Shown piece by piece: positions 7,005-53,305 of a stretch of DNA of 64,000 nucleotides (its first letter is position 1; each line of letters opens with the position of its first letter). The stretch is from NCBI GenBank assembly GCA_041650935.1, contig JBAZKH010000003.1:101269-165268 (forward strand). The letters are read 5' to 3'. The notes beneath the pieces were generated by a model that was not told the DNA's origin, did not search any database, and saw nothing but the letters and a program-made list of their open reading frames with translations. The translations under genes and the position numbers were made by a program. This stretch comes from Candidatus Omnitrophota bacterium. GTDB lineage: Bacteria > Omnitrophota > Gorgyraeia > 2-01-FULL-45-10.

Positions 7005-7007
7005 ACA

Positions 7008-7816: not shown

Positions 7817-7819
7817 ATT

Positions 7820-22921: not shown

Positions 22922-22925
22922 ATAT

Positions 22926-24104: not shown

Positions 24105-24174
24105 GTTTTAGGGTCTAGGATATCAGGATATATTAGATAGGAAAATATTTTCCCTATTCATTATAGCCCCTACC

Positions 24175-24495
24175 CTATCTACTATTCTGTTTCGCTTCTT
24201 TCTCGGAAATCATCTTAATCGCTTTTCCCTTGACCGGGCACTCGTGCTCGCATATCCCGCACCCTTTACAATGGTCGTAATCGAACCCCACGACCTTGCC
24301 GTCCTTGACTATAACGGCCGAATCGGGACAGTATACCCAGCACGTAAGACAGCTTATGCACTTTTCAGGTATTAGGACCGGCCTTGATGAACGCCAATCG
24401 CCGGTCTTAAAATCTTTTGCCGTGCCGCCGCCCGCTATAATATCCGCTTCCGGTATCGCCCGCCACCCTGGTTTTTTATTTTTCTCTATAGCCAT
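24175..24495 (-). CDS. porD: Pyruvate:ferredoxin oxidoreductase delta subunit (2x[4Fe-4S] ferredoxin)
   Basis: CISCLTCWVYCP and CKGCGICEHECP cysteine motifs. Confidence 0.9.
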   Translation of the reverse strand: MAIEKNKKPGWRAIPEADIIAGGGTAKDFKTGDWRSSRPVLIPEKCISCLTCWVYCPDSAVIVKDGKVVGFDYDHCKGCGICEHECPVKGKAIKMISEKEAKQNSR

Positions 24496-24520
24496 ATTCC
24501 CGCCATCTGACAGCTAACAG

Positions 24521-25099
24521 CTAACTCCTGACTTCGCTATATGCCCGCTCGATAGCTTTAAGGTTTCCCTCTATGACTTCGGGCTTAGACTTGAACTTTT
24601 TTTCGAGCTTCTTGCGCATATCCTCGGACATTGCCTTAAAATCGAGTATGCCGGTCGCTTTTATGAGCGCGCCAAGCATCGGCGTATTGGGTATATCCCT
24701 GCCTATGGTCTCCATGGATATAGTAGAGGCGTCGACCGTAAAGACCTTGATAGAGCCTGTTATATTGAATATCTTCTTGATATCGGCAGGCGGCTTTTCG
24801 CTATTAATAACGAGAACGCCGTTTACAGGTATACCTTCGGTCACATCCACAGTCTCTATAAGAGTCGGATCGAGGACCATTACAATAGAGGGATTTTCCA
24901 CTCCGGAATGGAGCAGGATCGGCTTGGATGAAATACGGTTAAACGCTGTAACGGGCGCGCCCATGCGCTCCGGACCATACTCCGGAAACGCCTGTATATA
25001 CATTCCTTGGGCAAGCGCAGCGTCCGCAAATAAAAGAGCGGCCGTCTTTGCTCCCTGGCCGCCCCTTCCATGCCAGCGAATTTCAGTTAATTCTTTCAT
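24521..25099 (-). CDS. porG: Pyruvate:ferredoxin oxidoreductase gamma subunit
   Basis: 192 aa: MKELTEIRWHGRGGQGAKTAALLFADAA..., a typical PorG. Confidence 0.9.
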   Translation of the reverse strand: MKELTEIRWHGRGGQGAKTAALLFADAALAQGMYIQAFPEYGPERMGAPVTAFNRISSKPILLHSGVENPSIVMVLDPTLIETVDVTEGIPVNGVLVINSEKPPADIKKIFNITGSIKVFTVDASTISMETIGRDIPNTPMLGALIKATGILDFKAMSEDMRKKLEKKFKSKPEVIEGNLKAIERAYSEVRS

Positions 25100-39584: not shown

Positions 39585-40325
39585 ATGAAGATACGTATCC
39601 TGGGAACGAACGGCTGGTTCGACACCGCGATCGCCAATACAGTATGCATACTCATTGAGACAAATGAATGTTACATAATACTCGATGCCGGCGGCGGATT
39701 CCATAAGGCAAGAGAGTATATAAAGGCGGACCGGCCGGTCTATCTATTCATAAGCCATCTGCACCTCGATCATATAATCGGACTTCACACCCTTCCGCTA
39801 TTCAAGGTACCTCAGGGAATAGATATCTATCTGCCCGGAGGCATGGCGGCGCCGCTAAAGACTTTCCTGGATAAGCCCTACACTTCGTCTGTCGATACAC
39901 TCGCCTCTCCGGTAAGGATACACGAGATAGATACCGAGAAGCCGCCCAGACTCGCGGTCGATTTTGGACAACTTTGCCACTGGACCCTCTGTTACGGGTA
40001 CCGGTTTAACCTGGAAGGCAGGATAATCTCTTATTGTACGGATACGGGTATCTGCGACGAACTACGCATTCTCGCAAAAGACTGCGACCTCCTTATAACA
40101 GAATGCTCGTTCAAGCCCGGAGAGGATGTCAGCAAAACCCTCCATCTTAATCCGGAAGCGGCGGCAGAGATCGCTAAAGAGTGCGGGGTAAAAAAACTCG
40201 GCCTCATCCATTTCGATGCGGGACGTTATCCCGCCTTAAAAGACAGGGCCCTGGCCGAGAAGACAGCTGTAAAGATATTTCCGAATACTTTCGCGGCGTT
40301 CGACGGGCAGGAAGTCAAACTGTAG
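39585..40325 (+). CDS. MBL-fold metallo-hydrolase (RNase Z/phnP-like)
   Basis: HLHLDH metal-binding motif (SHLHLDHIIG). Confidence 0.75.
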   Translation: MKIRILGTNGWFDTAIANTVCILIETNECYIILDAGGGFHKAREYIKADRPVYLFISHLHLDHIIGLHTLPLFKVPQGIDIYLPGGMAAPLKTFLDKPYTSSVDTLASPVRIHEIDTEKPPRLAVDFGQLCHWTLCYGYRFNLEGRIISYCTDTGICDELRILAKDCDLLITECSFKPGEDVSKTLHLNPEAAAEIAKECGVKKLGLIHFDAGRYPALKDRALAEKTAVKIFPNTFAAFDGQEVKL

Positions 40326-40353
40326 AAAAGCAGCAGCGGGTAGTGAGCGCTTA

Positions 40354-40878
40354 TTACTTTTTAAGGAATGCGAGCAGATGTTCTATTATGGTAATTGGAT
40401 CGGGCGGGCATCCCGGTATGTGCGCCGATACCGGTATTATATTTTTAACACCGCCTGCGACATAGTAAGCGCTCCTGAATAACCCTCCGCCTAAGGCACA
40501 ATCACCAAGCGTTATTACATATTTCGGCTCCGGTATTGCGTCGTAAGTCTTTTTGAGCGCAAGCGCCATATTTTTGGAGACCGGCCCCGTAACTAAAAGA
40601 GCGTCCGCGTGCCTGGGTGAGGCGACAAAATCGACGCCAAACCTCTGAATGTCATACACCGGGTTCGTCGCTGCGATGATCTCGGACTCGCAACCGCCGC
40701 AGGAACCGGTATCGAGGGCGCGGATATGAAAGGACCTGCCGAATTGCTTACAGACCAGCTCTTTAAACTCGCTCCCAAGCGCCTCCAAATCCGCCGGCTT
40801 TTGGCGCATCGCATCCGGTAAGGATCTTGTCACGACGCCTTTGGATAACCTGTTCTTTATTATCCTGAATATGCTCAT
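40354..40878 (-). CDS. NuoB/hydrogenase small-subunit-like [4Fe-4S] protein of the Ehr-like/FHL-like complex
   Basis: CGGCESE, GDCALGGG and IPGCPP, the four Cys ligands of the N2-type cluster. Confidence 0.85.
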   Translation of the reverse strand: MSIFRIIKNRLSKGVVTRSLPDAMRQKPADLEALGSEFKELVCKQFGRSFHIRALDTGSCGGCESEIIAATNPVYDIQRFGVDFVASPRHADALLVTGPVSKNMALALKKTYDAIPEPKYVITLGDCALGGGLFRSAYYVAGGVKNIIPVSAHIPGCPPDPITIIEHLLAFLKK

Positions 40879-42467
40879 AGATCATTCCCTGAATAAGATA
40901 GATCGAAGCTCTTATTGCATAACGGAAAATCGGGTATTATGTTGCCCAGGACGGCAAACGAAAGCGCTTCCCAGTTATGGAAAGACGGGTCGACGATCTT
41001 GCATCTTTCGATAAGACCCCCATCATCGATTTCGACCCAATAGAGTGTCGCGCCGCGCCAGCCTTCCGAGTATCCGAGGGCGGCGCCGGACTTAAACGGA
41101 GGTATCGAACCTGCGCATGCCGCTTTTGAGGAAAGCTCATCCCAGTCGATAAGCTGCGCTATGATCCTGGCAGATTCTTCAAATTCCGCTATCCGGAGAT
41201 TGAGCCTCGCAAGAACGTCGCCGGCCGACTCCTTTGCCGCGTTAAACCGGATCCTGTTATATATACCTGCAGGAAAATCCTTACGTATATCCATCGATAT
41301 GCCGCTCGCCCTGGCCGCGGGGCCGACTACGCCCAGGTCCTCGGCCGTCCGCTTCTTTAATATACCCGTTCCGTCAACCCTATCCATGAACGAAACGCTG
41401 TTATAGAGCATCGCTTTTAACTTAGCGAAATCTTTCGAAATAATGTCAAGGGATCCGCGAAGGTTTGCCGCATCTCCGCTCGTCAAGTTTTTGCATACAC
41501 CGCCTATCCTGTTCATGCCCTTAAGATACCTGCTGCCGGTAAGGGCCCGGTTCATGGCAAGCATAGACTCTTTTATCACGGATGCATATGCAGACGGAAA
41601 GCTAAAACCCACATCTACAGCCATACCGCCTATATCCGCCGCATGATTATACATCCTCTCCAGTTCCAGCATTATTGCCCTGGCGGCCGCGGCATCCTCC
41701 GGGATGTTTATCCCGCAAATCTTCTCGACGGCGCGGCAGAACGCAAGACTATGGCCGAAACAAGAATCACCGCTCACGCATTCGGCGATCTTCACGGCCT
41801 CGGAGACGCATATCCCTTCCAGCAGTTTTTCGATGCCCCTGTGGGTGAAGCCGAGCCGCTCCTCCATGTTTATGATCGGCTCGCCGGCAGCGCTGAACCG
41901 GAAATGGCCGGGACCGATGATGCCCGCGTGGACGGGCCCGACGGGCACTTCGAATATCCCTTCGCCCTCTATCCTGTTGAATTTGTATTCACCGGACGGC
42001 GGCTTACCCGCTCGAGCGGCGGAAAAGTCTTTCCTTAAAGGATACGCCCCTTCCGGCCATACCTCGTCGTGAAGCTTGAGCCTGCGGCTATCGGGATTCC
42101 CATCCGGGGTTATACCGAACATCTCTTTTATCTCGCGCTCGAAGAGGCTCGCCGAATAGATATCTTTCGACAGGCTGTCGAAGCGCGGGTTATCGCCGCC
42201 GATATCGGCGCAGACTATTACCCATCTCCTGTATTTGGCCGACATGAAGACACATTTCAGCGTAAATACTCCTCTTGACTTTCTTTCATCGGAAGCGAAG
42301 AAAGCCATCACCGGCGATTTCAGCGTCCTGTGCAGTTCAAGGCAGGTCTCCTTAAAGTTTTCCAAAGCTACCTTTATGCGGACCTCGTCGCCGTATAATT
42401 CCGTCATCACGCCGGCCGGCATATTCCGCTTCTCCAGGATATCTTTAAAGATAAGCTTGGGATCCAT
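40875..42467 (-). CDS. Fused NuoC-NuoD / HycE-like large subunit, apparently lacking a complete NiFe ligand set
   Basis: An N-terminal 30-kDa-subunit-like domain is followed by a 49-kDa-subunit-like domain (GPVHAGIIGPGHFRF...GFTHRGIEKL). The L1 site reads ECVSGDSCFGHS instead of RxCGxCxxxH. The C-terminal L2 site reads VDPSFHNW instead of DPCxxCxxH. Confidence 0.8.
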   Translation of the reverse strand: MDPKLIFKDILEKRNMPAGVMTELYGDEVRIKVALENFKETCLELHRTLKSPVMAFFASDERKSRGVFTLKCVFMSAKYRRWVIVCADIGGDNPRFDSLSKDIYSASLFEREIKEMFGITPDGNPDSRRLKLHDEVWPEGAYPLRKDFSAARAGKPPSGEYKFNRIEGEGIFEVPVGPVHAGIIGPGHFRFSAAGEPIINMEERLGFTHRGIEKLLEGICVSEAVKIAECVSGDSCFGHSLAFCRAVEKICGINIPEDAAAARAIMLELERMYNHAADIGGMAVDVGFSFPSAYASVIKESMLAMNRALTGSRYLKGMNRIGGVCKNLTSGDAANLRGSLDIISKDFAKLKAMLYNSVSFMDRVDGTGILKKRTAEDLGVVGPAARASGISMDIRKDFPAGIYNRIRFNAAKESAGDVLARLNLRIAEFEESARIIAQLIDWDELSSKAACAGSIPPFKSGAALGYSEGWRGATLYWVEIDDGGLIERCKIVDPSFHNWEALSFAVLGNIIPDFPLCNKSFDLSYSGNDL

Positions 42468-42468
42468 G

Positions 42469-43929
42469 TCATGCGCCCTTCAGTATCTCTGTCGCCGAAA
42501 CTATGGCACCGTTAAGTAACGACGGCACCTTAAGGCCCATCACGCATATCAATACTAAGAGAAATATAAATACTATCTTCCCGCTAAGAGGTTCGCCCGA
42601 GACCGTCATCTTTTCCGGGGGCCGGCCGAATATGATCTTGCTCAGATGGAATATGATCCCGCCGAAGATAACGGGAATAAATAAGAGCAGCAGCGCCGAC
42701 GTAAAATACGCGCCTTTGGTAAAAGCGGATATGATTATTATGATTTCGCTTAAAAATATGGAAAAAGGCGGCGAGCCCACAAGCGCAAAGCCCGCTATGA
42801 TAACGACCGTGCCTATAAACGGCATCGTCTTTATTACGCCCCTTATCATATTCATATTATTCGTCTTATATTTCTTCACTATCTTTCCGGCGCCGAAGAA
42901 AATGATCGATTTCGTCATCGCGTGATTAAATACGTGGAGGAGCGCGCCGTAAATCCCCATGACGCCGCCGATCCCGAGCCCTATGCAGACTATCCCTATG
43001 TGCTCTATGCTGCTGTATGCGAAGAGCCTCTTCAGGTCCTTCTGCGCCAGTATAAAACCCGCCGACACCACAAGCGACAGGCAGCCGAAGAATATCAAAA
43101 GATTCGAAACATACGCGGAGCCCGCGCACCTGTTCACTATCACGGCAAACCTCAGGACCGCGTAGATCGCCGTCTTGAGCAATACTCCCGAAAGGAGCGC
43201 GCTTATCGGCGAGAGCGCCTGGCTGTGCGCATCGGGCAGCCATGTATGCATCGGCACGAGCCCGGCCTTCGTTCCGTAACCCACCAGTATGAAGAGGAAC
43301 GCCGTCTTTATCAGCCGGGGGTCGAGCCGGGACGCAACGGAGAGCATGCCGGTCCAATCAAGGGTCCGGACACCGCCATGCATGGCAATGGCATAGTAAA
43401 ATAGTATCGTACCGAAAAGCGCCAGCGTTATACCGACCGAGCAGATTATGATATATTTCCATGCGGCCTCGACAGAAGGCTTATCGTTATGAAAACCTAC
43501 GAGGAACGCGGAGACTAGCGTCGTCATCTCTATGGCAACCCAGACAAGCCCCATGTTGTTCAGGACCACTACCAGGAACATCGAAAGCGCAAAGAGATTG
43601 AATAGCGCGTAATAGGTCTTGAGCTTCCTTAAAGATATCGTGCCGGCGGCGAAATCGAGCGCCATGTAATCTATGGAATATAATGATGCCGCAAGGTCGA
43701 CGACCGAAATGGTAAGAAGAAAGAAGGCGCTCAGGGCGTCTATATAAAGAAAGCTGCCTATGGCGATGACCGATTTGGCGGTTACGACAGAATAGGTTAT
43801 TTTGAGGCTTATAAGCGCCGCCGCGAGATGGCCCGAAAAATTTATAACGCCCAGGCCTTTTGCATTATTGACAAAAGGCGCGATCGCGGCAAGCGCCAAA
43901 ATTATACCCAGTATAACCAGTATCTCCAT
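42469..43929 (-). CDS. Antiporter-like membrane subunit (NuoN/NuoM/HyfF/MrpD family)
   Basis: 486 aa, about 14 TM helices, with the WLPDAHSQA motif. Confidence 0.85.
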   Translation of the reverse strand: MEILVILGIILALAAIAPFVNNAKGLGVINFSGHLAAALISLKITYSVVTAKSVIAIGSFLYIDALSAFFLLTISVVDLAASLYSIDYMALDFAAGTISLRKLKTYYALFNLFALSMFLVVVLNNMGLVWVAIEMTTLVSAFLVGFHNDKPSVEAAWKYIIICSVGITLALFGTILFYYAIAMHGGVRTLDWTGMLSVASRLDPRLIKTAFLFILVGYGTKAGLVPMHTWLPDAHSQALSPISALLSGVLLKTAIYAVLRFAVIVNRCAGSAYVSNLLIFFGCLSLVVSAGFILAQKDLKRLFAYSSIEHIGIVCIGLGIGGVMGIYGALLHVFNHAMTKSIIFFGAGKIVKKYKTNNMNMIRGVIKTMPFIGTVVIIAGFALVGSPPFSIFLSEIIIIISAFTKGAYFTSALLLLFIPVIFGGIIFHLSKIIFGRPPEKMTVSGEPLSGKIVFIFLLVLICVMGLKVPSLLNGAIVSATEILKGA

Positions 43930-43941
43930 ATCCGGCCTTCT

Positions 43942-44580
43942 CTACCCTTTCAACTCCCTCATCTTATTGACGTCTATATGAGTAAATACCTTGTTGATTT
44001 TGTAAACGAACATCCCCAGTATGATAACGCATACAAATACGTCGAAGAATATCGCGATCTCTACGAAGAACGGCATACCCCCCGAAACGGACGACGCCAC
44101 CAGAAACAGGCCGTTCTCCATTACAAGGAGCCCCACTATCTGCGAGACCGCTTTCATCCTTGAGACCATCATGAATAATCCTATAAGGGTGACCGAAAGA
44201 GATATGATAACCGCCTCTCCCTGCGCGCGGTCCGCCAGCGGCATGCGGCCGGTGAAAAGATACGAAATATACGTAAGAAGGATCGCTATAAATATGGAGA
44301 CGGTGGGGTTTACGAACAATCCCGCAGTCCCTTCCGTCCGTATCCTCTTCACCATCCTCGACAATATATAAGGTATGGCTATGACCTTTACCGACAAAAG
44401 GAGGAACGCGATTATATAGATTTCGGCATCCCCCGCCCTGACGGCCATATAAAGCGTCGCGAGGAAAAGGAAGAACGATTGCGCGCGAAACGCGCCTATT
44501 ATGGCATCCAGCCTTTTGGCGGCTACAAGCGCAAATGCCATAAAGAGAATGCCTGTCAGGAATAATTGCATTATATCCAT
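43942..44580 (-). CDS. HyfE-like small membrane subunit of FHL/hydrogenase-4-type complexes
   Basis: About 212 aa with about 6 TM helices. The internal Met (MDIMQLF) was chosen as the start to avoid overlap with the upstream gene. Confidence 0.6.
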   Translation of the reverse strand: MDIMQLFLTGILFMAFALVAAKRLDAIIGAFRAQSFFLFLATLYMAVRAGDAEIYIIAFLLLSVKVIAIPYILSRMVKRIRTEGTAGLFVNPTVSIFIAILLTYISYLFTGRMPLADRAQGEAVIISLSVTLIGLFMMVSRMKAVSQIVGLLVMENGLFLVASSVSGGMPFFVEIAIFFDVFVCVIILGMFVYKINKVFTHIDVNKMRELKG

Positions 44581-44581
44581 G

Positions 44582-45457
44582 CTATAACCCCACCGCCGAG
44601 ATAACAAGCGCCGCCATCGCCAGGACGAACGCAAAGCTTAAGAAATCGACGGCCCTGAAGAGCCGCATCTTTGCCACCGAGACCTCGATGAGCGCCGCCA
44701 TAACGGATATTATCAATACCTTTACCGCCAGCCCCCATACGGGAAAGACCACGTTTGCCAGGATGACGAAAAAGACCATCTGCTTAATCTGCGATGCAAG
44801 CTCGATAAGCGCAAGGGACCTGCCCGAATATTCCAGCACCATCGCCTCATGTATCATCGTAAGTTCAAGGTGCGTCTCCTGGTTATCGACGGGCACTCTC
44901 GAAGTCTCCGCCAGCACCGCCATAATAAGCGAAACGCCCGCCACAATGGAAGAAAACCGGATCGAGTGGTGGCTGTATATAACGGCAGGATTTGTGGAAG
45001 CGAAATTGGCGCAGACGGCGAATATCGCAGTAAGTATTACGGGTTCGACGAGGCTCGATATAAACATCTCCCGCGATGAACCCATCCCCCCGAATGCACT
45101 TGCCGTATCGAGGCCCGCGAGCGCCAGGAAGAAACGGCCGAGCGCCATCAGGAATATTATCGCAAGAAGCTCCCCCATATAATTGAACGGGTTTGCCGCG
45201 CCGGATACGGGCAGAAGGAAGAGCGCCAGCGCGCAGGATGTAAAGACGACATACGGCGTAATGGTAAATATCCAGGACCTGTTTTCGGATACGACTTCCG
45301 CCTTGCCGAATAATTTGGCCAGATTGTAATACGGCTGGAGTATGCCGGGCCCGCGGCGCATCCTTATATTATTCTTTATCTTACTGATAATACCGCTTAC
45401 AAGAGGCGCCGCCAGTATAAGCAGAATAACCTGGGCTGTTATAATTAAGAATTTCAT
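44582..45457 (-). CDS. NuoH/HycD/HyfC-like membrane subunit
   Basis: 291 aa with 8 TM helices, in the complex I subunit 1 family. Confidence 0.8.
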   Translation of the reverse strand: MKFLIITAQVILLILAAPLVSGIISKIKNNIRMRRGPGILQPYYNLAKLFGKAEVVSENRSWIFTITPYVVFTSCALALFLLPVSGAANPFNYMGELLAIIFLMALGRFFLALAGLDTASAFGGMGSSREMFISSLVEPVILTAIFAVCANFASTNPAVIYSHHSIRFSSIVAGVSLIMAVLAETSRVPVDNQETHLELTMIHEAMVLEYSGRSLALIELASQIKQMVFFVILANVVFPVWGLAVKVLIISVMAALIEVSVAKMRLFRAVDFLSFAFVLAMAALVISAVGL

Positions 45458-45461
45458 AATT

Positions 45462-47303
45462 TTAAAACCTGCTCATGAAAATTATAAGCGCAATCATGGT
45501 TATGAATATATAGGCTATATATAGATGGATACTGCCGGACTGCATCCGTTTCAGGGTGTCGGATATCTTAAAGACGGCGCGCAGGATAGGTTCATATATA
45601 TATTCCTTGAAGAGGAGCGTCGTATAGACCTCATACTTAAAAGACTTCACATGATAGAACGATTCGCGGATCTTTTCCGTCTTACGGTACGGCTTAAGGA
45701 AGAAGTTGAACGCTATCCTGAAAGGCTTGGAAAACGCGGTGGCCGTATATTCCGTCCTGGAATCGAGCTTGTAATAACCGCAGTCCCACGTCCTGTTTAC
45801 CGCGCGCCGCGGCGCGCCCGCTAAAAGATATACGGTTAAGACCGTTATCCCGGCGATCGCCAGAAGGGCGAGCGCGATCAAAGACGGCGAAAGATATGCG
45901 CCGGAAGAAACCGGGGGCATAATAATAAAACCGTTAAAGGTAAATGCGATCTGCGACGTATCGATTGCCAAAATACTCCCGGAGACGCAGACTAAAACCT
46001 TTAATATGAACGGCGCCGCAAGCCCGAAGACCACCGCAAGTATGGCAAGAAAAATCATCGCGAGCTTCATGGAAAACGGGGACTCTTTTGCCTCATGCGC
46101 GCTCTGGGACCTCGGCATGGCGAGAAACGTTATGCCGAACGCCTTGACAAAACACGCCGCCGCGAGCCCGCTCGTCAAGGCCAGGACGCCTGCCAATAGC
46201 CCCATGAATATTTTTATCCCGGCCGCGCCGCTTATTACACCGGTGAAAAATGCCTGGAACGTCAGCCACTCGCTCACGAAGCCGTTTAAGGGCGGCAGGG
46301 CCGATATGGCCATCGCCCCGATCAGGAATGAAACAGCCGTAACCGGCATCGTTTTGATGAGCCCGCCCATCCGCTCCATATTGCGCCTGCCGGTAGCCTT
46401 GTAGACGCTCCCCGCCGAGAGGAAGAGCAGCCCTTTGAATATCGAGTGGTTAATAAGGTGGTATAGTCCTGCCGCCATGGCTAATACGGCGGCGGCGGGC
46501 ATCTGCAGTTTAAGGAACAAAACCGAAGCTCCGACGCCTAAAAGTATTATGCCGATATTCTCGACGCTATGGTAAGCGAGCAGTTTCTTTATGTCGTGTT
46601 CCATGAGGGCATATATGACGCCGACCAGACACGAGATGGCGGCTATTACAAGGACGGTACCGCCCCACCACGCTGCCTGGACACCGATTATCATTACCGT
46701 AAATCTTATGAAAGCGTATATAGCCGTCTTTATCATGACACCCGACATGATGCTGGATATGTGGCTGGGCGCCTGCGGATGCGCATACGGCAGCCAAACA
46801 TGCAGGGGTACTATACCGGCCTTGGTCCCGAAACCGCCAAGGAATAACAGGAAGGCGAGGTTTTTCGCTCCGGGCGACATCGCCGGGCACGCGGCTTTCA
46901 TCGCCGCGAAGTCGAACGAATGCGAGTAACCGAATATGATCAGGATGGCCGCAATGATAAAAGCCGTCCCTATATGCGTCATGACGATGTATATCGTGCC
47001 GGCCTGGATAGAACGGTCGTGTTCACTGTCGAATATAACGAGAAAATACGACGCCAGCGACATCAGTTCCCATACGATTATAAACGAGAAGGCGTTCTTT
47101 ACGGTAACTACCAGAGACATCGAAAGGACGAACAAGGCAAGGATCGCCCATCCCAGGACTATCCTCCGGCGCGTATATTGATTCTTCAGGTACCCGATCG
47201 AATAGACGGCCGAGGGCAGCGACACTACGGCTATTACGGCCAGAAAGAAGACCGATAAAGGATCGAACGATAATGTGAAGATGCTGTTGATAAGATATCC
47301 CAT
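45462..47303 (-). CDS. NuoL/HyfB/HycC-like antiporter-type membrane subunit
   Basis: 613 aa with the WLPYAHPQAPSHISS motif. It is the first gene of the operon. Confidence 0.85.
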   Translation of the reverse strand: MGYLINSIFTLSFDPLSVFFLAVIAVVSLPSAVYSIGYLKNQYTRRRIVLGWAILALFVLSMSLVVTVKNAFSFIIVWELMSLASYFLVIFDSEHDRSIQAGTIYIVMTHIGTAFIIAAILIIFGYSHSFDFAAMKAACPAMSPGAKNLAFLLFLGGFGTKAGIVPLHVWLPYAHPQAPSHISSIMSGVMIKTAIYAFIRFTVMIIGVQAAWWGGTVLVIAAISCLVGVIYALMEHDIKKLLAYHSVENIGIILLGVGASVLFLKLQMPAAAVLAMAAGLYHLINHSIFKGLLFLSAGSVYKATGRRNMERMGGLIKTMPVTAVSFLIGAMAISALPPLNGFVSEWLTFQAFFTGVISGAAGIKIFMGLLAGVLALTSGLAAACFVKAFGITFLAMPRSQSAHEAKESPFSMKLAMIFLAILAVVFGLAAPFILKVLVCVSGSILAIDTSQIAFTFNGFIIMPPVSSGAYLSPSLIALALLAIAGITVLTVYLLAGAPRRAVNRTWDCGYYKLDSRTEYTATAFSKPFRIAFNFFLKPYRKTEKIRESFYHVKSFKYEVYTTLLFKEYIYEPILRAVFKISDTLKRMQSGSIHLYIAYIFITMIALIIFMSRF

Positions 47304-47551
47304 TTAACAATCTGGTTTTGCTACGGGATAGGAGGGCTTAAGCGGTAAAACGATAAGCGGTAAGACATTTCGCGAGTCTCTCTATCTTAGCTACGCCATT
47401 CAAATTCTACTTTGCTCTTATATGCCCAAACACTGGCAGAGCTTCGTAGAAATTCCTGCAAAGCCATATCTTAAGTAAAACTGCTGAATGGCGTAGCAGA
47501 AGTTGTAATTAATTATAAGCTGAATCCTGCCGGTATGTCAAATATTTTACT

Positions 47552-47935
47552 CTACTTCTTGGAATCGTACTTATCGAGCACTTTTTTTATATCGTAGAGA
47601 AGCTCTTCGGAATCGAAAGGTTTGCTTATAAAATAAGTAACGCCGCTCTTCAGGCTCTTCGCCACGACATCCTGGCCCATCAGCGCAGTCACCATTATAA
47701 CGGGGATATCCTTCGTCTTATCATTCTCTTTCAGATGTTTCACTACTTCGAAACCGCTCTTCCCGGGGAGCAGTATGTCCATAAGTATAAGGTCGGGTAT
47801 ATCGTCTTCCGCCTTCTTGAGACAATCCTCCCCATTAACGGCGGTAACTACCACATAGCCATTCGACACCAGCCTGGCCCGGATTATCTCCAGCATATAC
47901 GGCTCGTCGTCGACCACTAGAATCTTCTTGGCCAT
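47552..47935 (-). CDS. Single-domain response regulator (CheY-like receiver)
   Basis: 127 aa: ILVVDDEP...DLILMDILLPG...VIMVTAL...K. Confidence 0.85.
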   Translation of the reverse strand: MAKKILVVDDEPYMLEIIRARLVSNGYVVVTAVNGEDCLKKAEDDIPDLILMDILLPGKSGFEVVKHLKENDKTKDIPVIMVTALMGQDVVAKSLKSGVTYFISKPFDSEELLYDIKKVLDKYDSKK

Positions 47936-47972
47936 TTTGCACTCCTTCGTTTTTGGTACTTGCCGCTATAAC

Positions 47973-49475
47973 CTAAAGAGCTTCCATGCCGCGGCGGCAA
48001 ATCTCCCTGGCGTAATCCGTCCACAACCCCTGCCCCCAGTAACGGAAATCGCTCGATTGGGATAAGAGAAGATACAGGAGAGCCTTCCGGTAGCCAGGAT
48101 CCTCCGTATCCGCGCTTTTGCTGCCGGCCCTTCTGCGGCGCACGGGGTCGATACTGAGCTCTGTCGAAGTATCGAACTTGCGATGGAACATGACGCTTAA
48201 TTTATTGATGGGGCCCAGGATATCCTCGTATCCCTTTACCCAGTTTTTATCATTGGTCCATGAGCCTTTGTCGAGATTGTAGTTCGGGTCTCTTCCATGT
48301 ATGGCTTCGATGGCGCGATCGCACGCGCCGGGTGAATATTCGGTTACGAATTCCCATATCCTGTGCTGGGATACAGGCTGGACCGGCGTAAAAAACCGCT
48401 CGTCGGCGCCGGAGAGTTTCAGAAATTCGAGATACTCGGAGCCGTTCATCCCGACGGTGCCCACTATACCTATCTCACGAAAAGCCTGTTTGTATGCCGG
48501 CGGGAATTCGTTCATCATCACGCCGCCGTTCTCGCCGTCCCCTATCTGCAGGACATAGGGCGGCATCCGCCTGCCCTGGAGATCCTCGCGGAGACGGGAT
48601 TTTGCCTCATAGTACGGCTGCATCTGGGCGACGAGCTTGGTGTCCGACCCCTGGGTCTTGACCAGGACCGTTATCTCTTCTGTCTTGCCGAGAGAATTTT
48701 TGGCAACAAGCTTATGCGGGAAATGCGGCCTGTGTATCGGTTTCCCATCCAGGTTCTCTATCGTGTGCTCCTGCACCATCAGCCATTCGTAACCGCACTC
48801 TTTAAGCGCCTTAACATATTCGTAACATACGTCCGGATGTATCGGCAGGTGCATCTCGGGAGCGGAAAAACCTTTCACGCGGTCGAGCGCGTCGTAACCG
48901 AATATCGACGCAAAATGTTTACGCCAGGCGAGCATATGCAGTTTTATGTCGGGCACGGGCGTTGACGTCACAACGGCATGCGACCACATCGTCCCCAGCC
49001 ATTCGCAATACCGGTAATATTTCTTATCGCAGGTGATCAGGCTTAAGCTATCGAGCGCTTTGCCGCCGTCGATCTGCCTTAAACCCCACAGTAGATTACC
49101 GGAGTAGTCCAGCATCACGCGCGGATTATGGCCCTGCCCGGCGAGCTCCCTTAAGAATTCGGACATGCGCGCATAGCACCACAAAAATACGGTCGCATTA
49201 TGATTGTCGCCTATATTCTGGTGCTCCAGCATATACTGTAGGTTCGAGATAAGATGGGCACCCCTTAGATCATCTGTCGATGCGGGGATAGTGGGCTGGT
49301 GCATATGGAGGGCTATGCCGAAACCGGAATTTACCCTCTCGAAATCTATATTCGAAACCGGCGCGTATACTTCTTTTTTGCGCCGCGCGCCTTTTAACGC
49401 AAGCCGCTCCTCCCCGCCGCTTATGTTGGGGAGCCCGTCGACAAGTTCCCGCGGTCTTTCTTTAATGGTCGGCAT
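47973..49475 (-). CDS. Glycoside hydrolase family 57 protein (alpha-glucan-active, amylase/glucanotransferase-like)
   Basis: GH57 region-I motif ALHMHQP. The start was set at MPTIKERP (GGAGG RBS upstream), because the track start overlaps the upstream gene. Confidence 0.7.
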   Translation of the reverse strand: MPTIKERPRELVDGLPNISGGEERLALKGARRKKEVYAPVSNIDFERVNSGFGIALHMHQPTIPASTDDLRGAHLISNLQYMLEHQNIGDNHNATVFLWCYARMSEFLRELAGQGHNPRVMLDYSGNLLWGLRQIDGGKALDSLSLITCDKKYYRYCEWLGTMWSHAVVTSTPVPDIKLHMLAWRKHFASIFGYDALDRVKGFSAPEMHLPIHPDVCYEYVKALKECGYEWLMVQEHTIENLDGKPIHRPHFPHKLVAKNSLGKTEEITVLVKTQGSDTKLVAQMQPYYEAKSRLREDLQGRRMPPYVLQIGDGENGGVMMNEFPPAYKQAFREIGIVGTVGMNGSEYLEFLKLSGADERFFTPVQPVSQHRIWEFVTEYSPGACDRAIEAIHGRDPNYNLDKGSWTNDKNWVKGYEDILGPINKLSVMFHRKFDTSTELSIDPVRRRRAGSKSADTEDPGYRKALLYLLLSQSSDFRYWGQGLWTDYAREICRRGMEAL

Positions 49476-51087
49476 AAGATGCCTCCGGTAAGTAATATAC
49501 GGCACAGTCCATATCGCGGAATATATTATCCCGGCTCTCCACCTCTTCCAGCCACTCCTCATCTATGGAATTGCCGAGTATGTCGTTATATAGTTTCGTA
49601 AACCTGTTTATGTGCACACAGGTCCTTTTATTGGCATACGGCACCATCGTGCCGGTCTTTATTATAAAGGCCCAGTCGCTCGATTCCGCAAGCACCAGTT
49701 CTCTGGCGGCCTGGTTCAACGCACGGGTCCGGAGCTTGTTTAATTCGGGGTTCTTTATATTCGCTTCGAACTTTTGCGCCAGCTCCACCATCCTATCCTC
49801 CGCCGCGTGCAAGTGCTTATATATCCAATCCGTCCCGCCGCTGAGCCACTGTTCGCTGTAACCCTTCCACCCCCAGCTCGAGCCGGACGGCAGCGCGACC
49901 TGGTTCGTCGGATATTCTTCGAGATATTCGCCGGGCGTCGCCATCTTTACCGTCTTCTGGTCGTAGGCCATCTTCCTTGCCAGGAAATCTATCCACATCG
50001 GCCCCTCGAACCACCAGTGGCCGAAGAGCTCGGCATCGTACGGCGCAATGATGATAGGTTTCCTGTCCATATGGTGGGAGAGATGCTCTATCTGCTTCTC
50101 CCTATTGAACATAAAGTTACCGGCGTGCATGGCCGCTTTTTCGCGCGCCCAGTCTGGAACATACGGTTCCTTATGTTCGGTCTTGCCGGTTATACGCCAA
50201 TACTTCATGCCGGTATTTATCCTCAACCCGTTAGGGTGTATGTACGGTTTTATATACTCGTGATCGAGCTCATAGCCTATGTCCTTGTAATATTCCCTGT
50301 AATCTACGTCGCCGGGATAACCTTCTTTCGAGCTCCAAACCTGTTTAGACGATTCCCAGTCGCGGCCGAACGCCGCTACCCCGGACGGGCAATAGAGCGG
50401 CGCATATACGCCGTATTTCGGCGCGGGATCCGCGTTCATTATACCGTGTGAATCTACGAAGAAATACCTGACGCCCGCGTCTTTCAGGATCTTGTCGACG
50501 CCCGGATAATAGCCGCATTCGGGGAGCCAGAAACCTTTGGGCGTGCGCCCGAATGTCTTCTTGTAGTGATCGACGCCGATGTTGATCTGCGCCCTGGCCG
50601 CCTGTTCATTTACACCGAGGATGGGCAGGAAACCGTGCGTCGCGCACGAACCGATGACCTCGACATATCCCATGTCCTGGAATTTCTTAAAAGCGCGCAC
50701 GAGATCCCGCTTGTATTTGTCGACGAAAGTCTCTCTCGCTTCGAGGAATTTCCTGTGATACATGAGCGCGAGCCCGTGGAAGCGCGCGTCATAACCGGTC
50801 CTCTCCATCTCTTTTTTCGCCAGGTCTATGAGCCTGTCGATGTGACGGATATAGCGGTTCTGTAAAAACGGGTCCTTTAACATCGAGACAAGGGGAGGCG
50901 TCAGGGACATTGTTATGCGGAATTCCACGCCGTCGGCTATAAGTTTCTCGAAGACATTTATGAGCGGGATGTATGTTTCGGTAATAGCTTCGTAGAGCCA
51001 GTTCTCCTCGAGGAAATACTCTTCTTCGGGATGGCGGACAAACGGAAGGTGTGTATGCAGGACAAGGCTTAAATATCCTTTATACAT
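49462..51087 (-). CDS. GH57 family 1,4-alpha-glucan branching enzyme
   Basis: LVLHTHLPFV motif and a C-terminal helical domain. The start was chosen at MYKGYLS (51085-51087). Confidence 0.75.
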   Translation of the reverse strand: MYKGYLSLVLHTHLPFVRHPEEEYFLEENWLYEAITETYIPLINVFEKLIADGVEFRITMSLTPPLVSMLKDPFLQNRYIRHIDRLIDLAKKEMERTGYDARFHGLALMYHRKFLEARETFVDKYKRDLVRAFKKFQDMGYVEVIGSCATHGFLPILGVNEQAARAQINIGVDHYKKTFGRTPKGFWLPECGYYPGVDKILKDAGVRYFFVDSHGIMNADPAPKYGVYAPLYCPSGVAAFGRDWESSKQVWSSKEGYPGDVDYREYYKDIGYELDHEYIKPYIHPNGLRINTGMKYWRITGKTEHKEPYVPDWAREKAAMHAGNFMFNREKQIEHLSHHMDRKPIIIAPYDAELFGHWWFEGPMWIDFLARKMAYDQKTVKMATPGEYLEEYPTNQVALPSGSSWGWKGYSEQWLSGGTDWIYKHLHAAEDRMVELAQKFEANIKNPELNKLRTRALNQAARELVLAESSDWAFIIKTGTMVPYANKRTCVHINRFTKLYNDILGNSIDEEWLEEVESRDNIFRDMDCAVYYLPEASYADH

Positions 51088-52135
51088 ATCGTGTCTTTTC
51101 GCGCTCCGCGGCTGTAATAATCTCACGCTTTTCCGCATCATCAGCGGAGATCGCGGTAAAACCCAGCGGTATCTTCCCATCGGGCAGGGCGAGCCTCATA
51201 TCGAATGTCCCGTCGGGGCGCAATTCTATTTTTTTATCGCCCCAGAAGACTTTTGCATCCGGCTCCGTCCGGCCGTAAACTATGAGTTCAGTGCCGATCT
51301 CGAAAAAAAACTTTCTTGCCGGGGATTGTTCGCTGGCGCCCGGGAAGGCCTCGCTCGCGCCGCCGTATTCGGAAGCGCCCAGAAATGTCTTTTTGGAGAA
51401 TCTTCCCGCGATAGCGCTGCAGGTATCGGATCCCGTCAGGGAGAAATCGAGCCCCAGGCGCTTAAGCATGCCTCTGCGGGTCAGGCGGCGTGCAAGTCTT
51501 TGTGATATAACATCTTTAAGGAGGGGTGAAATATTCGAATAATACTCCGCTACGTCCTCTTCAGTCAGGGTTATCCTGCGGCGGCGGTTCGGTCTGTTCC
51601 CGGGCGTTCCTGTTCTTTGATTTTTTTTTACGTCCGCTATTACGTAAGGCGCCGCCGGCTTGAAACCCTCCGCCTTCATCCATATCTCTTCGCGGCGGTT
51701 CGAAGAATTAATCCGCGGCGTCGTGACAAAGTTGGATCTTGTCAGGGCGAAGAATCTCCCGTCATTAAAACGGTAACCTATCTCAGCGCAATAGCTCGCG
51801 TTATCGTTCCAAAGATTTACGTACCAGTTATCTGAGTTAGCGCCCACATCGATATCGAACTGGCGGTTAGCGTTGGTCCCGTTAAAATCGATGCAGGAGA
51901 CATCATAGAGACGCAGGATCCGGGCGGCACCGTCCAGGGAACCTATCCGGCTCTTCAGCTCGTCGACCGAAGAATACGGGATCTCCCAGTATGCGTATAT
52001 CCAGTGCGGATCCCGCGCTACTAAGGTGAGTTTTATCCTGTTATAGGCAAGAGGTATGTCGAGACTCTCAACAAACGGCTTTTTTACGCCATGGCTCTTC
52101 TTGTTCCTGCTAGTGGCCATACGAAGTTTCACCAA
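51080..52135 (-). CDS. Hypothetical protein conserved with GH57 glucan genes (DUF4912-like)
   Basis: 351 aa with a basic mid-region (GTPGNRPNRRRRITLTEED). The family call is tentative. Confidence 0.5.
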   Translation of the reverse strand: MVKLRMATSRNKKSHGVKKPFVESLDIPLAYNRIKLTLVARDPHWIYAYWEIPYSSVDELKSRIGSLDGAARILRLYDVSCIDFNGTNANRQFDIDVGANSDNWYVNLWNDNASYCAEIGYRFNDGRFFALTRSNFVTTPRINSSNRREEIWMKAEGFKPAAPYVIADVKKNQRTGTPGNRPNRRRRITLTEEDVAEYYSNISPLLKDVISQRLARRLTRRGMLKRLGLDFSLTGSDTCSAIAGRFSKKTFLGASEYGGASEAFPGASEQSPARKFFFEIGTELIVYGRTEPDAKVFWGDKKIELRPDGTFDMRLALPDGKIPLGFTAISADDAEKREIITAAEREKTRYV

Positions 52136-52141
52136 ATTGCT

Positions 52142-53305
52142 TTAGGAGCTGTAAACATCCAATACCTGGTCGGCGACTATATCCCACGAAAACGCGGATT
52201 CCACCGCGACCCGGCCGTTTCTTCCCATCCACCTGGCATGCTCGAAATCGTTAAAAAGCGTCCCTATTCCCCACGCTATCGATTCCGGATTGCAGTATAT
52301 CTTCAAACCCGTAACGTCGTGCCATATTATCTCGGACGGTCCGCCGTTGCCGCAAGCCACAACGGGTTTGCCGGCGCTCCACGCCTCGAGTATCACGATA
52401 CCAAACGGCTCGTTCCTGCTCGGCACCACTACGCAGTCGCAGGCCTTGTACAGGTCCGACAACCGCCACCCGTTGTGATAACCGAGGAATCTTGTCGCGT
52501 GAGCAACGCCGATCTGCCTGGCGCGCGCCTCGACCGACCAGCGCATTTCACCGTCACCGACGAATACGAATTTAGCGTTTCCGTAATATTTGAGGATGTA
52601 AGGGATCGCCTCGACCAGGAGGTCCGGCCCTTTCTGGTAGACCATCCTTCCCGAAAATAAGACCATCGGATCCATCGGCCCTACGCCGTACATACGCCGC
52701 ACGCCGGCAGGATCTATCCAGCCGTCGTAATTTCTGGGATTCACACCGTTATATACTACGCTGACTTTCCAGTCCGGCAGATTATACATCCACATTATCT
52801 CGTTCTTAAGCGCGCCCGAGACAGCCATCACCTTGTCCGCGCAGAATGTACCGTGGCGTTCGTGGTCCCTTATGCGGGCGGACCTTCCTCCGTGAAAATT
52901 ATTGCCGCATCTGCCGTATTCGGTAGAGTGTATCGTCAAAATACTCTTCCGGCCGCGGCCCTGTTTTATCCATACCATAGCGTTAGATGCCAGCCAGTCG
53001 TGGGCATGGACAATATCGAACGGCGCGCCCATGTAATCCTCGGCATGGAAGACAGCATCGACAAACGCCCTGCACATATTATTTATCTCTTCGACAAAAT
53101 CGGAATGTGACGTGAACGGGACCCTGTGATAATGGACGCCCTGGATACGCTCATACTGGGCATGGTTGGGCCTGCCCATGCGGGTAAATACATGGATCTC
53201 ATTGCCTTTGCGTTCCAACGCACATGCAAGCTCGGTAACATGCGCCGCTACGCCGCCTACGCCTATCGAGTGAAGGGATTCCCATGAAAGCAACGCTATC
53301 TTCAT
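52142..53305 (-). CDS. GT4-family glycosyltransferase (glycogen/alpha-glucan synthase-like)
   Basis: 387 aa with the C-terminal E-x7-E-type motif region (PSRNEPFGIVILEAWSAGKPVV). Confidence 0.75.
   Translation of the reverse strand: MKIALLSWESLHSIGVGGVAAHVTELACALERKGNEIHVFTRMGRPNHAQYERIQGVHYHRVPFTSHSDFVEEINNMCRAFVDAVFHAEDYMGAPFDIVHAHDWLASNAMVWIKQGRGRKSILTIHSTEYGRCGNNFHGGRSARIRDHERHGTFCADKVMAVSGALKNEIMWMYNLPDWKVSVVYNGVNPRNYDGWIDPAGVRRMYGVGPMDPMVLFSGRMVYQKGPDLLVEAIPYILKYYGNAKFVFVGDGEMRWSVEARARQIGVAHATRFLGYHNGWRLSDLYKACDCVVVPSRNEPFGIVILEAWSAGKPVVACGNGGPSEIIWHDVTGLKIYCNPESIAWGIGTLFNDFEHARWMGRNGRVAVESAFSWDIVADQVLDVYSS

Follow-up and report, generated by a model that had tools for sequence, protein, structure and literature searches.

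[quoted passage not shown] The archetype of the class is the Ehr (Ech-hydrogenase-related) cluster GSU0739-0745 of Geobacter sulfurreducens, named by Coppi, which comprises a NuoL-like EhrA, a HyfE-like EhrC, a large EhrL and a small EhrS; it has no known hydrogenase activity, and its function was never determined (PMC7894505). The Ehr of Riflemargulisbacteria and Saganbacteria, reported by Matheus Carnevali et al. in 2019, consists of HyfB, HyfF, NuoH, HyfE, NuoCD and NuoB (PMC6349859, Supplementary Note 4, Margulisbacteria), and its NuoB gene is stated to encode a NuoI homologue too (PMC6349859). The membrane-bound sulfane reductase (MBS) of Pyrococcus furiosus (6U8Y) is likewise derived from group 4 and has lost its NiFe site, but is still a redox-driven ion pump. 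MBS is built from 13 subunits, among them the NuoI-like MbsN with its two clusters, and still has two of the four Cys; catalysis takes place at the proximal cluster, where a shortened motif leaves one iron with no Cys to bind it (PMC7684303).

The locus considered here lies in a 64-kb stretch of DNA from Candidatus Omnitrophota, the whole of which was analysed and is referred to as the window. It shares with the Ehr of Riflemargulisbacteria and Saganbacteria the six subunit types, the gene order, the Cys-less motifs and the beta1-beta2 Gly, and differs in host phylum, in a small subunit without a NuoI-like domain, and in having no fdhA-nuoEF genes nearby. By this common family and gene order, the original prediction of an Ehr-type, non-hydrogenase relative of the group 4 [NiFe] hydrogenases was right, but the novelty it implied was overstated: the ferredoxin-like subunit is normally absent in the family, and the six subunits had been described in Margulisbacteria in 2019. 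The locus adds an Omnitrophota member to an already described family, and is not a new kind of system. The G. sulfurreducens cluster, compared by description only, has seven genes where the window has six.

All six subunits are closer to those of group 4 hydrogenases than to Nuo. Among solved structures, the group 4a [NiFe] hydrogenases of Escherichia coli, formate hydrogenlyase (Hyc, 7Z0S) and hydrogenase 4 (Hyf), come closest to the HyfB-like, HycD-like and large subunits, while HycG is second to MbhJ for the small one; HycE and HyfG are NuoC-NuoD fusions, as is the large subunit here. Unlike Hyc and Hyf, the complex lacks the NiFe cysteines, the proton-relay Glu and the extension after L2, and the window has neither FdhF nor hyp genes. 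Homologues of complex I (NDH-1) subunits NuoB, C, D, H and K and of the antiporter-like L/M/N are present, the NuoD-like one having no metal site, as in NuoD itself, whereas NuoI, E, F and G are missing.

The operon and its relatives

Six co-directional, tightly packed ORFs occupy 40354-47303 of the minus strand, exactly the bounds given originally (Table 1); neighbours overlap by no more than 4 nt and are no more than 12 nt apart. They were assigned to families by Pfam and NCBIfam profiles and run in the order HyfB/HycC-like, HycD/NuoH-like, HyfE-like, HyfF-like, fused NuoC-NuoD/HycE-like and NuoB/HycG-like; these assignments and the contiguity of the ORFs bear out the proposed six-gene FHL/complex-I-like membrane complex. 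For ehrC, the start is most likely the ATG at 44580, which gives a protein of the length seen in relatives (206–220 aa), and not the TTG at 44634.

Table 1. Features of the operon and of the region upstream of it
Feature	Position	Strand	Description
ehrA	45462..47303	-	HyfB/HycC-like antiporter-like subunit, 613 aa
ehrB	44582..45457	-	NuoH/HycD-like membrane anchor, 291 aa
ehrC	43942..44580	-	HyfE-like membrane subunit, NuoK-like C-terminal half, 212 aa
ehrD	42469..43929	-	HyfF/MbhH-like antiporter-like subunit, 486 aa
ehrL	40875..42467	-	fused NuoC + NuoD/HycE-like large subunit, 530 aa, without NiFe ligands
ehrS	40354..40878	-	NuoB/HycG/MbhJ-like small subunit, 174 aa, one [4Fe-4S] site
putative sigma-70-type promoter	47512..47541	-	TTGACA, 18 nt, TATAAT; by consensus match alone
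long hairpin element	47390..47497	-	13-nt perfect outer stem, conserved apical hairpin GCTTTGCAGGAA..TTCTACGAAGC

About 40 loci, drawn from Omnitrophota, Elusimicrobia, Margulis-, Sagan- and Firestonebacteria, carry these six genes in identical order, so that the arrangement is kept across at least five phyla. Large-subunit identity between the window and the Margulisbacteria and Saganbacteria loci is 53–61%. Invariant across phyla are the NuoH-like coupling loop, the beta1-beta2 loop of the large subunit, a pair of membrane Glu in the NuoK-like subunit and, in both antiporter-like subunits, the Lys/Glu chains.

The operon is self-contained, without a conserved neighbour or a HycF/NuoI-type subunit. 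No equivalents of HycF/HyfH, HycB/HyfA or HyfD were found. Across the window, a CxxCxxCxxxC motif was absent from the six-frame translation except in PorD at ~24.3 kb, and the hyp, fdh and nuoEF families were not found among the approximately 50 ORFs scanned, in agreement with the earlier statement that the window has neither a HycF/NuoI-type 2x[4Fe-4S] subunit nor hyp genes. The lack of a ferredoxin-like subunit is normal for the six-subunit Ehr family and no oddity of this locus. The porGDAB genes (21968-25099) encode a four-subunit 2-oxoacid:ferredoxin oxidoreductase 15 kb from the operon, and no linkage of por to the operon was seen in the other loci examined. Outside the six genes, no cluster recurs in more than five of 49 loci (flanks up to 10 kb); the recurrent neighbours, read from their sequences, look like housekeeping genes (cyclophilin, GreA, PyrR, DEAD-box helicase and rubrerythrin).

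The large and small subunits

The large subunit matches Pfam Complex1_30kDa (32–150), NiFeSe_Hases (210–275, the N-terminal part only) and Complex1_49kDa (285–441). It aligns with E. coli HycE (7z0s_E, E 1.9e-66) without gaps around either cysteine motif, with 'ecvSgdSCfgh' opposite HycE 'drvCgiCgfah' in the L1 region and 'sfdlSysGnd' opposite 'sldpCysCtd' in L2. The four NiFe-ligand positions are S232, S235, S524 and G527; all four cysteines have been replaced. The C-terminal cysteines are missing, as predicted, and the N-terminal pair is gone too; nor did the proposed HycE/NuoD comparison, carried out with HycE and Nqo4, reveal any retained NiFe cysteine. VDPSFHNW (residues 492–499), which had been taken for the L2 motif, aligns instead with HycE 'raatyanw' and Nqo4 'rapsfvnl', a conserved segment further upstream, while the true L2 equivalent is formed by the last ten residues (520–529). 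The conclusion that no NiFe centre is possible consequently stands on the four replaced ligands, although the L2 placement offered in its support was wrong.

Other catalytic positions have changed as well. The hydrogenase proton-relay Glu is replaced by Gly (G185), and the protein ends in ...GNDL with no extension past the L2 position. Where complex I has its quinone ligands His38 and Tyr87 (Thermus thermophilus Nqo4 numbering), the protein has I184 and G233, respectively, which is evidence against a quinone site like that of complex I. The former L1 and L2 and the beta1-beta2 motif are near-invariant in 40 ehrL orthologues, with the same ligand replacements, and the latter also occur in 95 of 125 diverse representatives. 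Gly at the Glu position of the beta1-beta2 loop is found in only four of the 125, most of the diverse Ehr-like ones keeping the Glu of 'IIEPGHFRF'. The sole invariant novelty is Asp234 in 'SGD', and no substitute set of invariant metal ligands was found among the orthologues. The dN/dS ratio of ehrL is 0.14 (against L002). With all NiFe ligands and the proton-relay Glu lost, the six-subunit complex, judged by its sequence, cannot make or use H2.

The small subunit has retained a [4Fe-4S] site with conventional ligation. It belongs to Pfam Oxidored_q6 (1.5e-28) and matches MbhJ (6cfw_J, E 2e-35) and HycG (5e-33), with C60, C63, C127 and C157 opposite the cluster cysteines of both, so that the NuoB-like subunit does retain all four, as had been claimed; they are invariant in 37 family members. 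With only five Cys, its 174 aa could not accommodate a NuoI-like fusion domain, and at 167–199 aa the small subunits of the window and of all related loci fetched are too short for one. Its CxxC has hydrogenase-type spacing, aligned to MbhJ without gaps, where NuoB has a tandem CC. We infer from this gap-free spacing that the cluster would be a relay rather than catalytic, unlike that of MBS. The three-loop coupling region of MBS is conserved, as it is here, but here the CxxC spacing is of the MbhJ type in full and a NuoI-like subunit is absent; sequence similarity to MBS is also much weaker (MbsL, 2e-26; MbsJ, 3.4e-18).

The membrane subunits and possible function

Conservation extends to the membrane arm. 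The ehrA product scores 659.7 bits against the NCBIfam 'hydrogenase 4 subunit B' profile (positions 74–667), below the cut-off of 667, and its alignment with HycC (7z0s_C, E 1.5e-79) begins at HycC residue 69; the first ~70 residues of HycC/HyfB are lacking, a short N-terminus being found family-wide. The ehrD product matches hydrogenase 4 subunit F (NCBIfam, 478.7 bits) and MbhH (6cfw_H, E 2.8e-45). In both, the TM5 Glu and the Lys of TM7, TM8 and TM12 are invariant (26 family members for ehrA, 40 for ehrD). The ehrB product matches Pfam NADHdh (2e-35) and HycD (7z0s_D, E 1.2e-34), and its TM5-6 loop reads 'aEtsR.PvDNqeTHLELTM.HEAMvLEYSG' with hardly any variation among 31 members. That of ehrC matches the NCBIfam hydrogenase 4 membrane subunit (87 bits, from ORF residue 21) and, in its C-terminal half, Pfam Oxidored_q2, with two invariant membrane Glu ('mEnG', 'vEi').

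What might such a complex do? It is probably an Ehr complex that has retained an FeS-dependent, ion-translocating function. It would pump H+ or Na+ in a redox-coupled way and have one relay cluster, that of the small subunit. This cluster would be reduced by a soluble donor of low potential, most likely ferredoxin, docking in the place that HycF/NuoI takes in related enzymes; the ferredoxin could itself be reduced by the 2-oxoacid:ferredoxin oxidoreductase encoded 15 kb away. Electrons would go straight from the cluster to an acceptor other than protons, located in the chamber that lies between the large, small and NuoH-like subunits, and the change in charge would reach both antiporter-like subunits by way of the conserved loops. 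Since none of about 130 loci pairs the operon with a gene for an electron-input subunit, a donor or an acceptor, the donor and acceptor are purely what we infer, and any specific pair is tentative.

Could the complex instead be a standard group 4 [NiFe] hydrogenase of the formate hydrogenlyase/Hyf type with misaligned cysteines, or the decaying remnant of one? The gene order does parallel hyfB-C-E-F-G-I, HycE, HycC, HycD and HycG are best or near-best among solved relatives, and relatives are publicly annotated as 'Ni,Fe-hydrogenase III large subunit'. However, the gap-free HycE alignment, with Ser, Ser, Ser and Gly at the ligand positions, refutes this reading at the sequence level; the replacements recur in the orthologues and in most of the diverse representatives, the proton-relay Glu is Gly, and there is no HycF-type gene. 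The low dN/dS, together with the invariant functional residues, excludes pseudogene decay, and the chance that either version is correct is negligible.

A redox-independent antiporter, carrying out Mrp-like secondary Na+(K+)/H+ exchange with the NuoB/NuoCD-like head as a structural cap or redox-sensing gate and no net electron flow, would account for the lack of an electron-input subunit, of a catalytic cofactor site and of a redox partner at any locus, and both large membrane subunits match the MrpA/MrpD structures (7qru, 6z16). It is nevertheless unlikely: four cluster cysteines invariant across phyla are not the pattern expected of a purely structural head, and no homologues of MrpB, E, F or G surfaced when the six operon genes were put through general family scans. 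Improbable as well is a supercomplex in which an FdhA-NuoE/F-like soluble enzyme, encoded elsewhere, docks on the head of the Ehr membrane module and feeds it electrons from formate. This was put forward for the same protein family in Margulisbacteria and Saganbacteria, by its authors' own account as a hypothesis only (PMC6349859), and the Ehr subunits of G. sulfurreducens were most abundant on formate (PMC7894505), but the window yielded neither fdh nor nuoE/F, and no such cluster recurs beside the operon in the 49 loci. The ion-translocating Ehr complex thus remains the preferred reading.

The upstream region

The intergenic leader is 248 nt long (not 240 nt, as noted earlier). A promoter candidate located after the receiver gene's stop and ahead of ehrA matches the consensus at 12 of 12 positions and is the sole perfect site in 40000-48200; transcription from it would give a 5' UTR of ~200 nt. 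The leader contains a perfect 13-nt inverted repeat (47390-47402/47485-47497), folds better than shuffled sequences (z -3.6 to -4.3), and has no match in Rfam for its hairpin. The only other copy of the hairpin is in L050, the closest relative having an upstream flank, where it stands 1.4 kb ahead of the operon, on the far side of a DEAD-box helicase gene, with the best match in the opposite orientation. The element is thus probably not specific to the operon: the inverted repeat is present, but an operon-specific leader, as originally suggested, is not what the displaced and inverted copy points to.

The adjacent orphan CheY-like receiver was also proposed as a dedicated regulator. It fared no better, such a gene being present upstream in about two of the 26 genome loci with an upstream flank, and within 3 kb in none of 80 metagenome loci. 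Dedicated regulation by the receiver gene and the leader hairpin is therefore not supported by synteny. In the window, the receiver gene forms the end of an upstream glycogen-type gene cluster, and the strong predicted promoter separates it from the operon.

The large subunit and its lost ligands

Judged by its matches, the large subunit of the six-gene operon is homologous to the large subunits of group 4 [NiFe] hydrogenases. Its best solved relative is E. coli HycE (7z0s_E; E 1.9e-66, residues 80-529), MbhL matches at 5e-32, and the Pfam families NiFeSe_Hases (N-terminal part) and Complex1_49kDa also match. In group 4 [NiFe] hydrogenases, the NiFe cysteines lie in the L1 (RxCGxCxxxH) and L2 (DPCxxCxxH/R) motifs, and a Glu in the beta1-beta2 loop is the conserved proton relay of [NiFe] hydrogenases. 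The alignment with HycE is gap-free at both motifs ('drvCgiCgfah' in HycE against 'ecvSgdSCfgh' here, and 'sldpCysCtd' against 'sfdlSysGnd') and places S232, S235, S524 and G527 at the four ligand positions, with none of the four cysteines kept. The original prediction, which had noted the non-canonical L1 spacing and the loss of the L2 cysteines, was right on both counts, but it had located the cysteine-free L2 at VDPSFHNW, a conserved stretch upstream of L2 (residues 492-499) that aligns with 'raatyanw' of HycE and 'rapsfvnl' of Nqo4. The L1 and L2 CxxC motifs are also absent at the same positions in 40 orthologues. The protein terminates ...GNDL and HycE runs on past L2, so there is no C-terminal extension here.

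The losses are not confined to the cysteines. G185 is aligned to the loop Glu of HycE ('sdEpghfr'), and all 40 orthologues have Gly, Ala or Pro at this position. The quinone ligands of complex I, NuoD His38 and Tyr87 (Nqo4 numbering), are replaced by I184 and G233. Since the NiFe ligands, the loop Glu and the quinone ligands are all gone, the large subunit has neither a hydrogenase site nor a complex I site. What has taken their place is itself near-invariant in the 40 orthologues: E-[CR]-x-[SA]-G-D-[SAT] in the former L1 region, including an invariant Asp ('SGD') retained in the former active site, VGPVHAGIIGPGHFRF in the beta1-beta2 loop, and P-[LV]-C-N-K-S-F-[DN]-L-S-Y-x-G-N-D-L at the C-terminus. 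The locus thus offers E-x-[VI]-[SA]-G-D-[SAT] and N-K-S-F-[DN]-L-S-Y-x-G-x-D-L as signature motifs of the clade. Against L002, a related locus from another genome, the large subunit has a dN/dS of 0.14 (with dS near saturation), indicating purifying selection. At the level of sequence, pseudogene decay is ruled out by this ratio and the invariant residues, and a true group 4 [NiFe] hydrogenase by the absence of the NiFe cysteines and the relay Glu.

How common is such a subunit? Searched without a profile, 1.84 billion representative proteins yielded 963 matches at E <= 1e-30, and 125 full-length sequences out of the best 150 of these were aligned. No cysteine is found at any of the four positions in 95 of the 125, while 19 have all four and read ERxCGxC...NKSFELCYxCxDR. 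The 'SGD' Asp is present in 87 of the 104 Cys-poor sequences. The loop Glu, on the other hand, is kept in 119 of the 125 and is a Gly in only four, the window protein included, which makes the clade of the window a further-reduced subgroup. In a neighbour-joining tree of the 125 representatives, one branch parts all 95 Cys-free sequences from all 19 four-Cys ones, a topology that would fit a single loss of the cysteines but has a bootstrap of only 10/100. The energy-converting-hydrogenase-related (Ehr) type is widespread, and most of the 150 nearest large-subunit relatives among the 1.84 billion proteins lack the NiFe cysteines.

Operon organization and missing partner genes

Six minus-strand ORFs exactly fill 40354-47303. 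At their junctions they overlap by up to 4 nt or are separated by up to 12 nt, consistent with a single translationally coupled operon. Subunits were assigned with Pfam and NCBIfam profiles (see table). The HyfE-like protein probably starts at the ATG listed there, since the family profile begins at that point and relatives are 206-220 aa long. The start of the HyfB-like subunit corresponds to residue ~69 of HycC and position 74 of the HyfB profile, so that about 70 N-terminal residues, roughly the first two transmembrane helices, are missing relative to HycC/HyfB. The short N-terminus is conserved across phyla (598-630 aa) and is thus not a truncation in this genome; a small ORF encoding the lost helices was looked for upstream and not found.

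Features of the operon and other regions of the window (window coordinates)
Feature	Position	Strand	Length	Remarks
Fic/DOC-family gene	5916-7004			in low-G+C stretch
BrnT-type toxin gene	7820-8104			directly beside intron-bearing tRNA gene
Intron-bearing tRNA gene	8224-8576	minus		group I catalytic intron at ~8265-8541
porG, porD, porA, porB	21968-25099	minus		four-subunit 2-oxoacid:ferredoxin oxidoreductase (Pfam)
HyfB-like antiporter-like subunit	45462-47303	minus	613 aa	first in transcription order; nearest to hydrogenase 4 subunit B, 659.7 bits (cut-off 667)
NuoH/HycD-like subunit		minus	291 aa	second in transcription order; Pfam/NCBIfam
HyfE-like subunit		minus	212 aa	third in transcription order; probable start ATG at 44580
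HyfF-like antiporter-type subunit		minus	486 aa	fourth in transcription order; Pfam/NCBIfam
Large subunit	40875-42467	minus	530 aa	NuoC-like 32-150, NiFeSe_Hases 210-275, Complex1_49kDa 285-441
NuoB-like small subunit		minus	174 aa	last in transcription order; Pfam/NCBIfam
Inverted repeat	47390-47402 / 47485-47497		13 nt	perfect
Candidate promoter	47541-47512			perfect TTGACA-18-TATAAT, between receiver gene and operon
Alpha-glucan/glycogen-type cluster	47552-53305	minus		GT4/GT5 glycosyltransferase, DUF4912, GH57 branching enzyme with BE_C, weakly GH57-like protein

Scanning a single genome for each species turned up 48 related loci, in which the six genes occur in identical order wherever the contig is long enough. 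Their hosts belong to the Omnitrophota, Elusimicrobia, Margulisbacteria, Saganbacteria and Firestonebacteria, with single deltaproteobacterial and actinobacterial MAGs, and large-subunit identity to loci from phyla with complexes published as Ehr, a type placed near group 4f, is 53-61%. A Cys-free large subunit packed tightly in one operon with NuoB-like, NuoH-like and Mrp/antiporter-like subunits, in an order conserved across phyla, bears out the Ehr-type reading of the original prediction, and the identification of the locus as Ehr is correct. Ehr complexes have been described as group-4-hydrogenase-related complexes without metal-binding cysteines, their role being stated as unknown (PMC6349859; bioRxiv 10.1101/765248; PMC10284858; PMC7304191). 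In Geobacter sulfurreducens, GSU0739-0745 include a NuoL-like EhrA, a HyfE-like EhrC, EhrL and EhrS, and the physiological role of the complex 'has never been investigated' (PMC7894505). The same six subunit types are listed for the Margulisbacteria (PMC6349859, Supplementary Note 4).

The locus is thus one more member of a family that is known and has already been surveyed; the loss of the loop Glu is a minor, clade-specific twist, and taken alone the locus sheds no new light on what Ehr does. It does add a clean, compact six-gene example from the Omnitrophota, and it shows that this clade has lost the proton-relay Glu as well, with coupling loops and ion paths remaining invariant. Because Ehr sits between group 4 hydrogenases and complex I, its function would bear on the evolution of redox-driven ion pumping.

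Which genes are missing? Group 4 [NiFe] hydrogenases have a ferredoxin-like subunit (HycF/EchF/MbhN) in the complex, whereas the operon has no such gene; across all frames of the 64-kb window, CxxCxxCxxxC motifs occur only in PorD, at ~24.3 kb. Family scans of ~50 ORFs of the window found no hyp, nuoE/F or HycF/NuoI-type genes. The absence of a 2x[4Fe-4S] subunit from the operon and of hyp maturation genes from the window had both been anticipated. Complex I differs likewise in having NuoI and a tandem CC in NuoB, where the window has no NuoI-like gene and a CxxC as in MbhJ/HycG. A conserved partner encoded nearby was also considered, by clustering the flanking ORFs of 49 loci, and rejected, since outside the six no gene recurs in more than five of the 49. 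The recurrent neighbours, as read from their sequences (cyclophilin, GreA, PyrR, DEAD-box helicase, MFS transporter, rubrerythrin-like), look housekeeping, and none of those inspected is a HycF-type FeS protein.

The Margulisbacteria NuoB gene has been said to encode a NuoI homologue too (PMC6349859, Supplementary Note 4). No such NuoB-NuoI fusion is seen in the window or in the related loci fetched. Small subunits are 167-199 aa across all of the latter, and 167-171 aa in the Margulis- and Saganbacteria loci (L022, L029, L030, L033, L035, L037); the window protein has only five Cys. Subunits this short, and with so few cysteines in the window protein, would have no room for a NuoI-like 2x[4Fe-4S] domain.

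Possible modes of coupling

Alignments of the small subunit with MbhJ (2e-35) and HycG (5e-33) are free of gaps and put C60, C63, C127 and C157 on the cluster cysteines, as had been expected. The subunit keeps the hydrogenase-type C60-x-x-C63 spacing (the MbhJ alignment is gap-free through SCGGCESE / SCNGCDIE), and by its aligned residues it holds a conventionally ligated [4Fe-4S] site. In the NiFe-less MBS of Pyrococcus, a shortened Cys motif frees one iron to give a catalytic proximal cluster (PMC7684303). Such a cluster was considered here and rejected: the full MbhJ-type CxxC spacing is kept, so that the MBS mechanism is not indicated, and MbsJ, the MBS small subunit, is a much weaker match (3.4e-18). 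In the membrane part, the acidic TM5-6 loop is kept in the NuoH-like subunit, and the TM5 Glu and the TM7, TM8 and TM12 Lys in both antiporter-like subunits. Judged by these residues, the coupling loops and two antiporter-type ion paths are intact. No variation is seen across 26-40 family members in the ion-path residues, the four small-subunit Cys or two membrane Glu of the HyfE-like subunit.

What could such a complex do? It is probably a single-cluster, redox-coupled ion pump, which would take electrons from an external low-potential donor and pass them to an acceptor other than protons. Ferredoxin is the natural candidate for the donor, since the subunits that this operon lacks (HycF, NuoI, MbhN) are ferredoxin-like in their own right; reduced ferredoxin could come from porGDAB, a plausible source, together with the CstA-type pyruvate transporter. 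It is conceivable, if rather unlikely, that the clade represents either the most stripped-down redox module of the complex I superfamily or an FeS-head redox gate on an Mrp-like antiporter. In the former case, one [4Fe-4S] cluster would be the sole cofactor, a dissociable soluble ferredoxin would replace the built-in HycF/NuoI, and the acceptor would be reduced directly at the cluster. In the latter, no electrons would be transferred through the FeS head, and the Mrp-like antiporter would be gated by its redox state. If true, either would add a coupling mode to those demonstrated so far in the complex I superfamily.

A rival view is that the complex is simply an antiporter, redox-independent or redox-gated. 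Mrp, however, is a seven-subunit complex (MrpA-G) without a redox arm, whereas the operon has only MrpA/D-like and NuoK-like parts, plus a NuoB/NuoCD-like arm, and it is this arm, with its invariant cluster cysteines, that argues against the antiporter. Another rival is the FDH-Ehr supercomplex, proposed as an untested idea for the Margulisbacteria (PMC6349859, Supplementary Note 4). The Geobacter Ehr subunits were most abundant on formate (PMC7894505); the family scans of ~50 ORFs of the window returned no fdh gene.

Neighbouring features and annotation

The por genes lie elsewhere in the window (see table), and a por-ehr linkage was not seen in the other loci examined. A CstA-type pyruvate transporter gene adjoins the ehr operon. 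On the upstream side, the original prediction had taken both the CheY-like receiver and a leader with an inverted repeat as signs of dedicated regulation, and neither claim held up. The receiver (127 aa) lies 37 nt downstream of the weakly GH57-like gene, co-directional with it, and is the last gene of the glycogen-type cluster; it is found upstream in only ~2 of 26 flank-bearing genome loci and in none of 80 metagenome loci within 3 kb. The inverted repeat closes a stable hairpin (z -4.3), which has no match in Rfam and is not conserved in the related loci L003 and L006. The sole homologous copy is in L050, the closest relative with an upstream flank (HyfB-like identity 77%), where it lies 1.4 kb upstream of the operon (1396-1572), between phosphate transporter and DEAD-box helicase genes, and its best match is in reverse orientation with respect to the ehr operon. 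A riboswitch or conserved cis-regulator was rejected on these grounds, and the displacement suggests that the hairpin is a separate element rather than a leader dedicated to the operon. The element spans ~110-130 nt, and its apical hairpin is conserved (GCTTYGCAGGAA...TYCTRCGAAGC). Two related Omnitrophota genomes share it, with a single copy each in the window and in L050, and no copy was found in the 128 remaining loci. Candidate identities are a small RNA, a mobile hairpin element or a protein-binding palindrome.

Public names for Ehr large subunits are misleading. In NCBI, a protein of a Candidatus Omnitrophota MAG that is 100% identical to the large subunit goes under the name 'NADH-quinone oxidoreductase subunit C', and 'Ni,Fe-hydrogenase III large subunit' is also in use. 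Against PF00346 (Complex1_49kDa), which a survey of Omnitrophota metabolism used as its marker of 'respiratory complex I' (PMC10066038), the subunit reaches 137 bits. With so strong a match, surveys based on PF00346 could score Ehr genomes as having respiratory complex I.

Far from the operon, a tRNA gene missed by the standard ARAGORN run contains a group I catalytic intron, which scores 77.7 bits with Rfam RF00028 (gathering threshold 50, E 5e-18). When the flanks are joined after ...CTGGCTGT and before TAACCAGA..., a perfect 76-nt tRNA-Asn(GUU) results, and as the group I rule demands, a U precedes the 5' splice site and the intron ends in G; the intron mode of ARAGORN calls Thr(CGU) instead, with the same intron length of 277 nt. 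In bacteria, tRNA-Asn is not known as one of the classic tRNAs that carry group I introns. The G+C content is 0.42 in 6001-8000, compared to ~0.50 elsewhere in the window, and the stretch 5916-8104, with its Fic/DOC-family and BrnT-type toxin genes, looks like a typical small island inserted at a tRNA.
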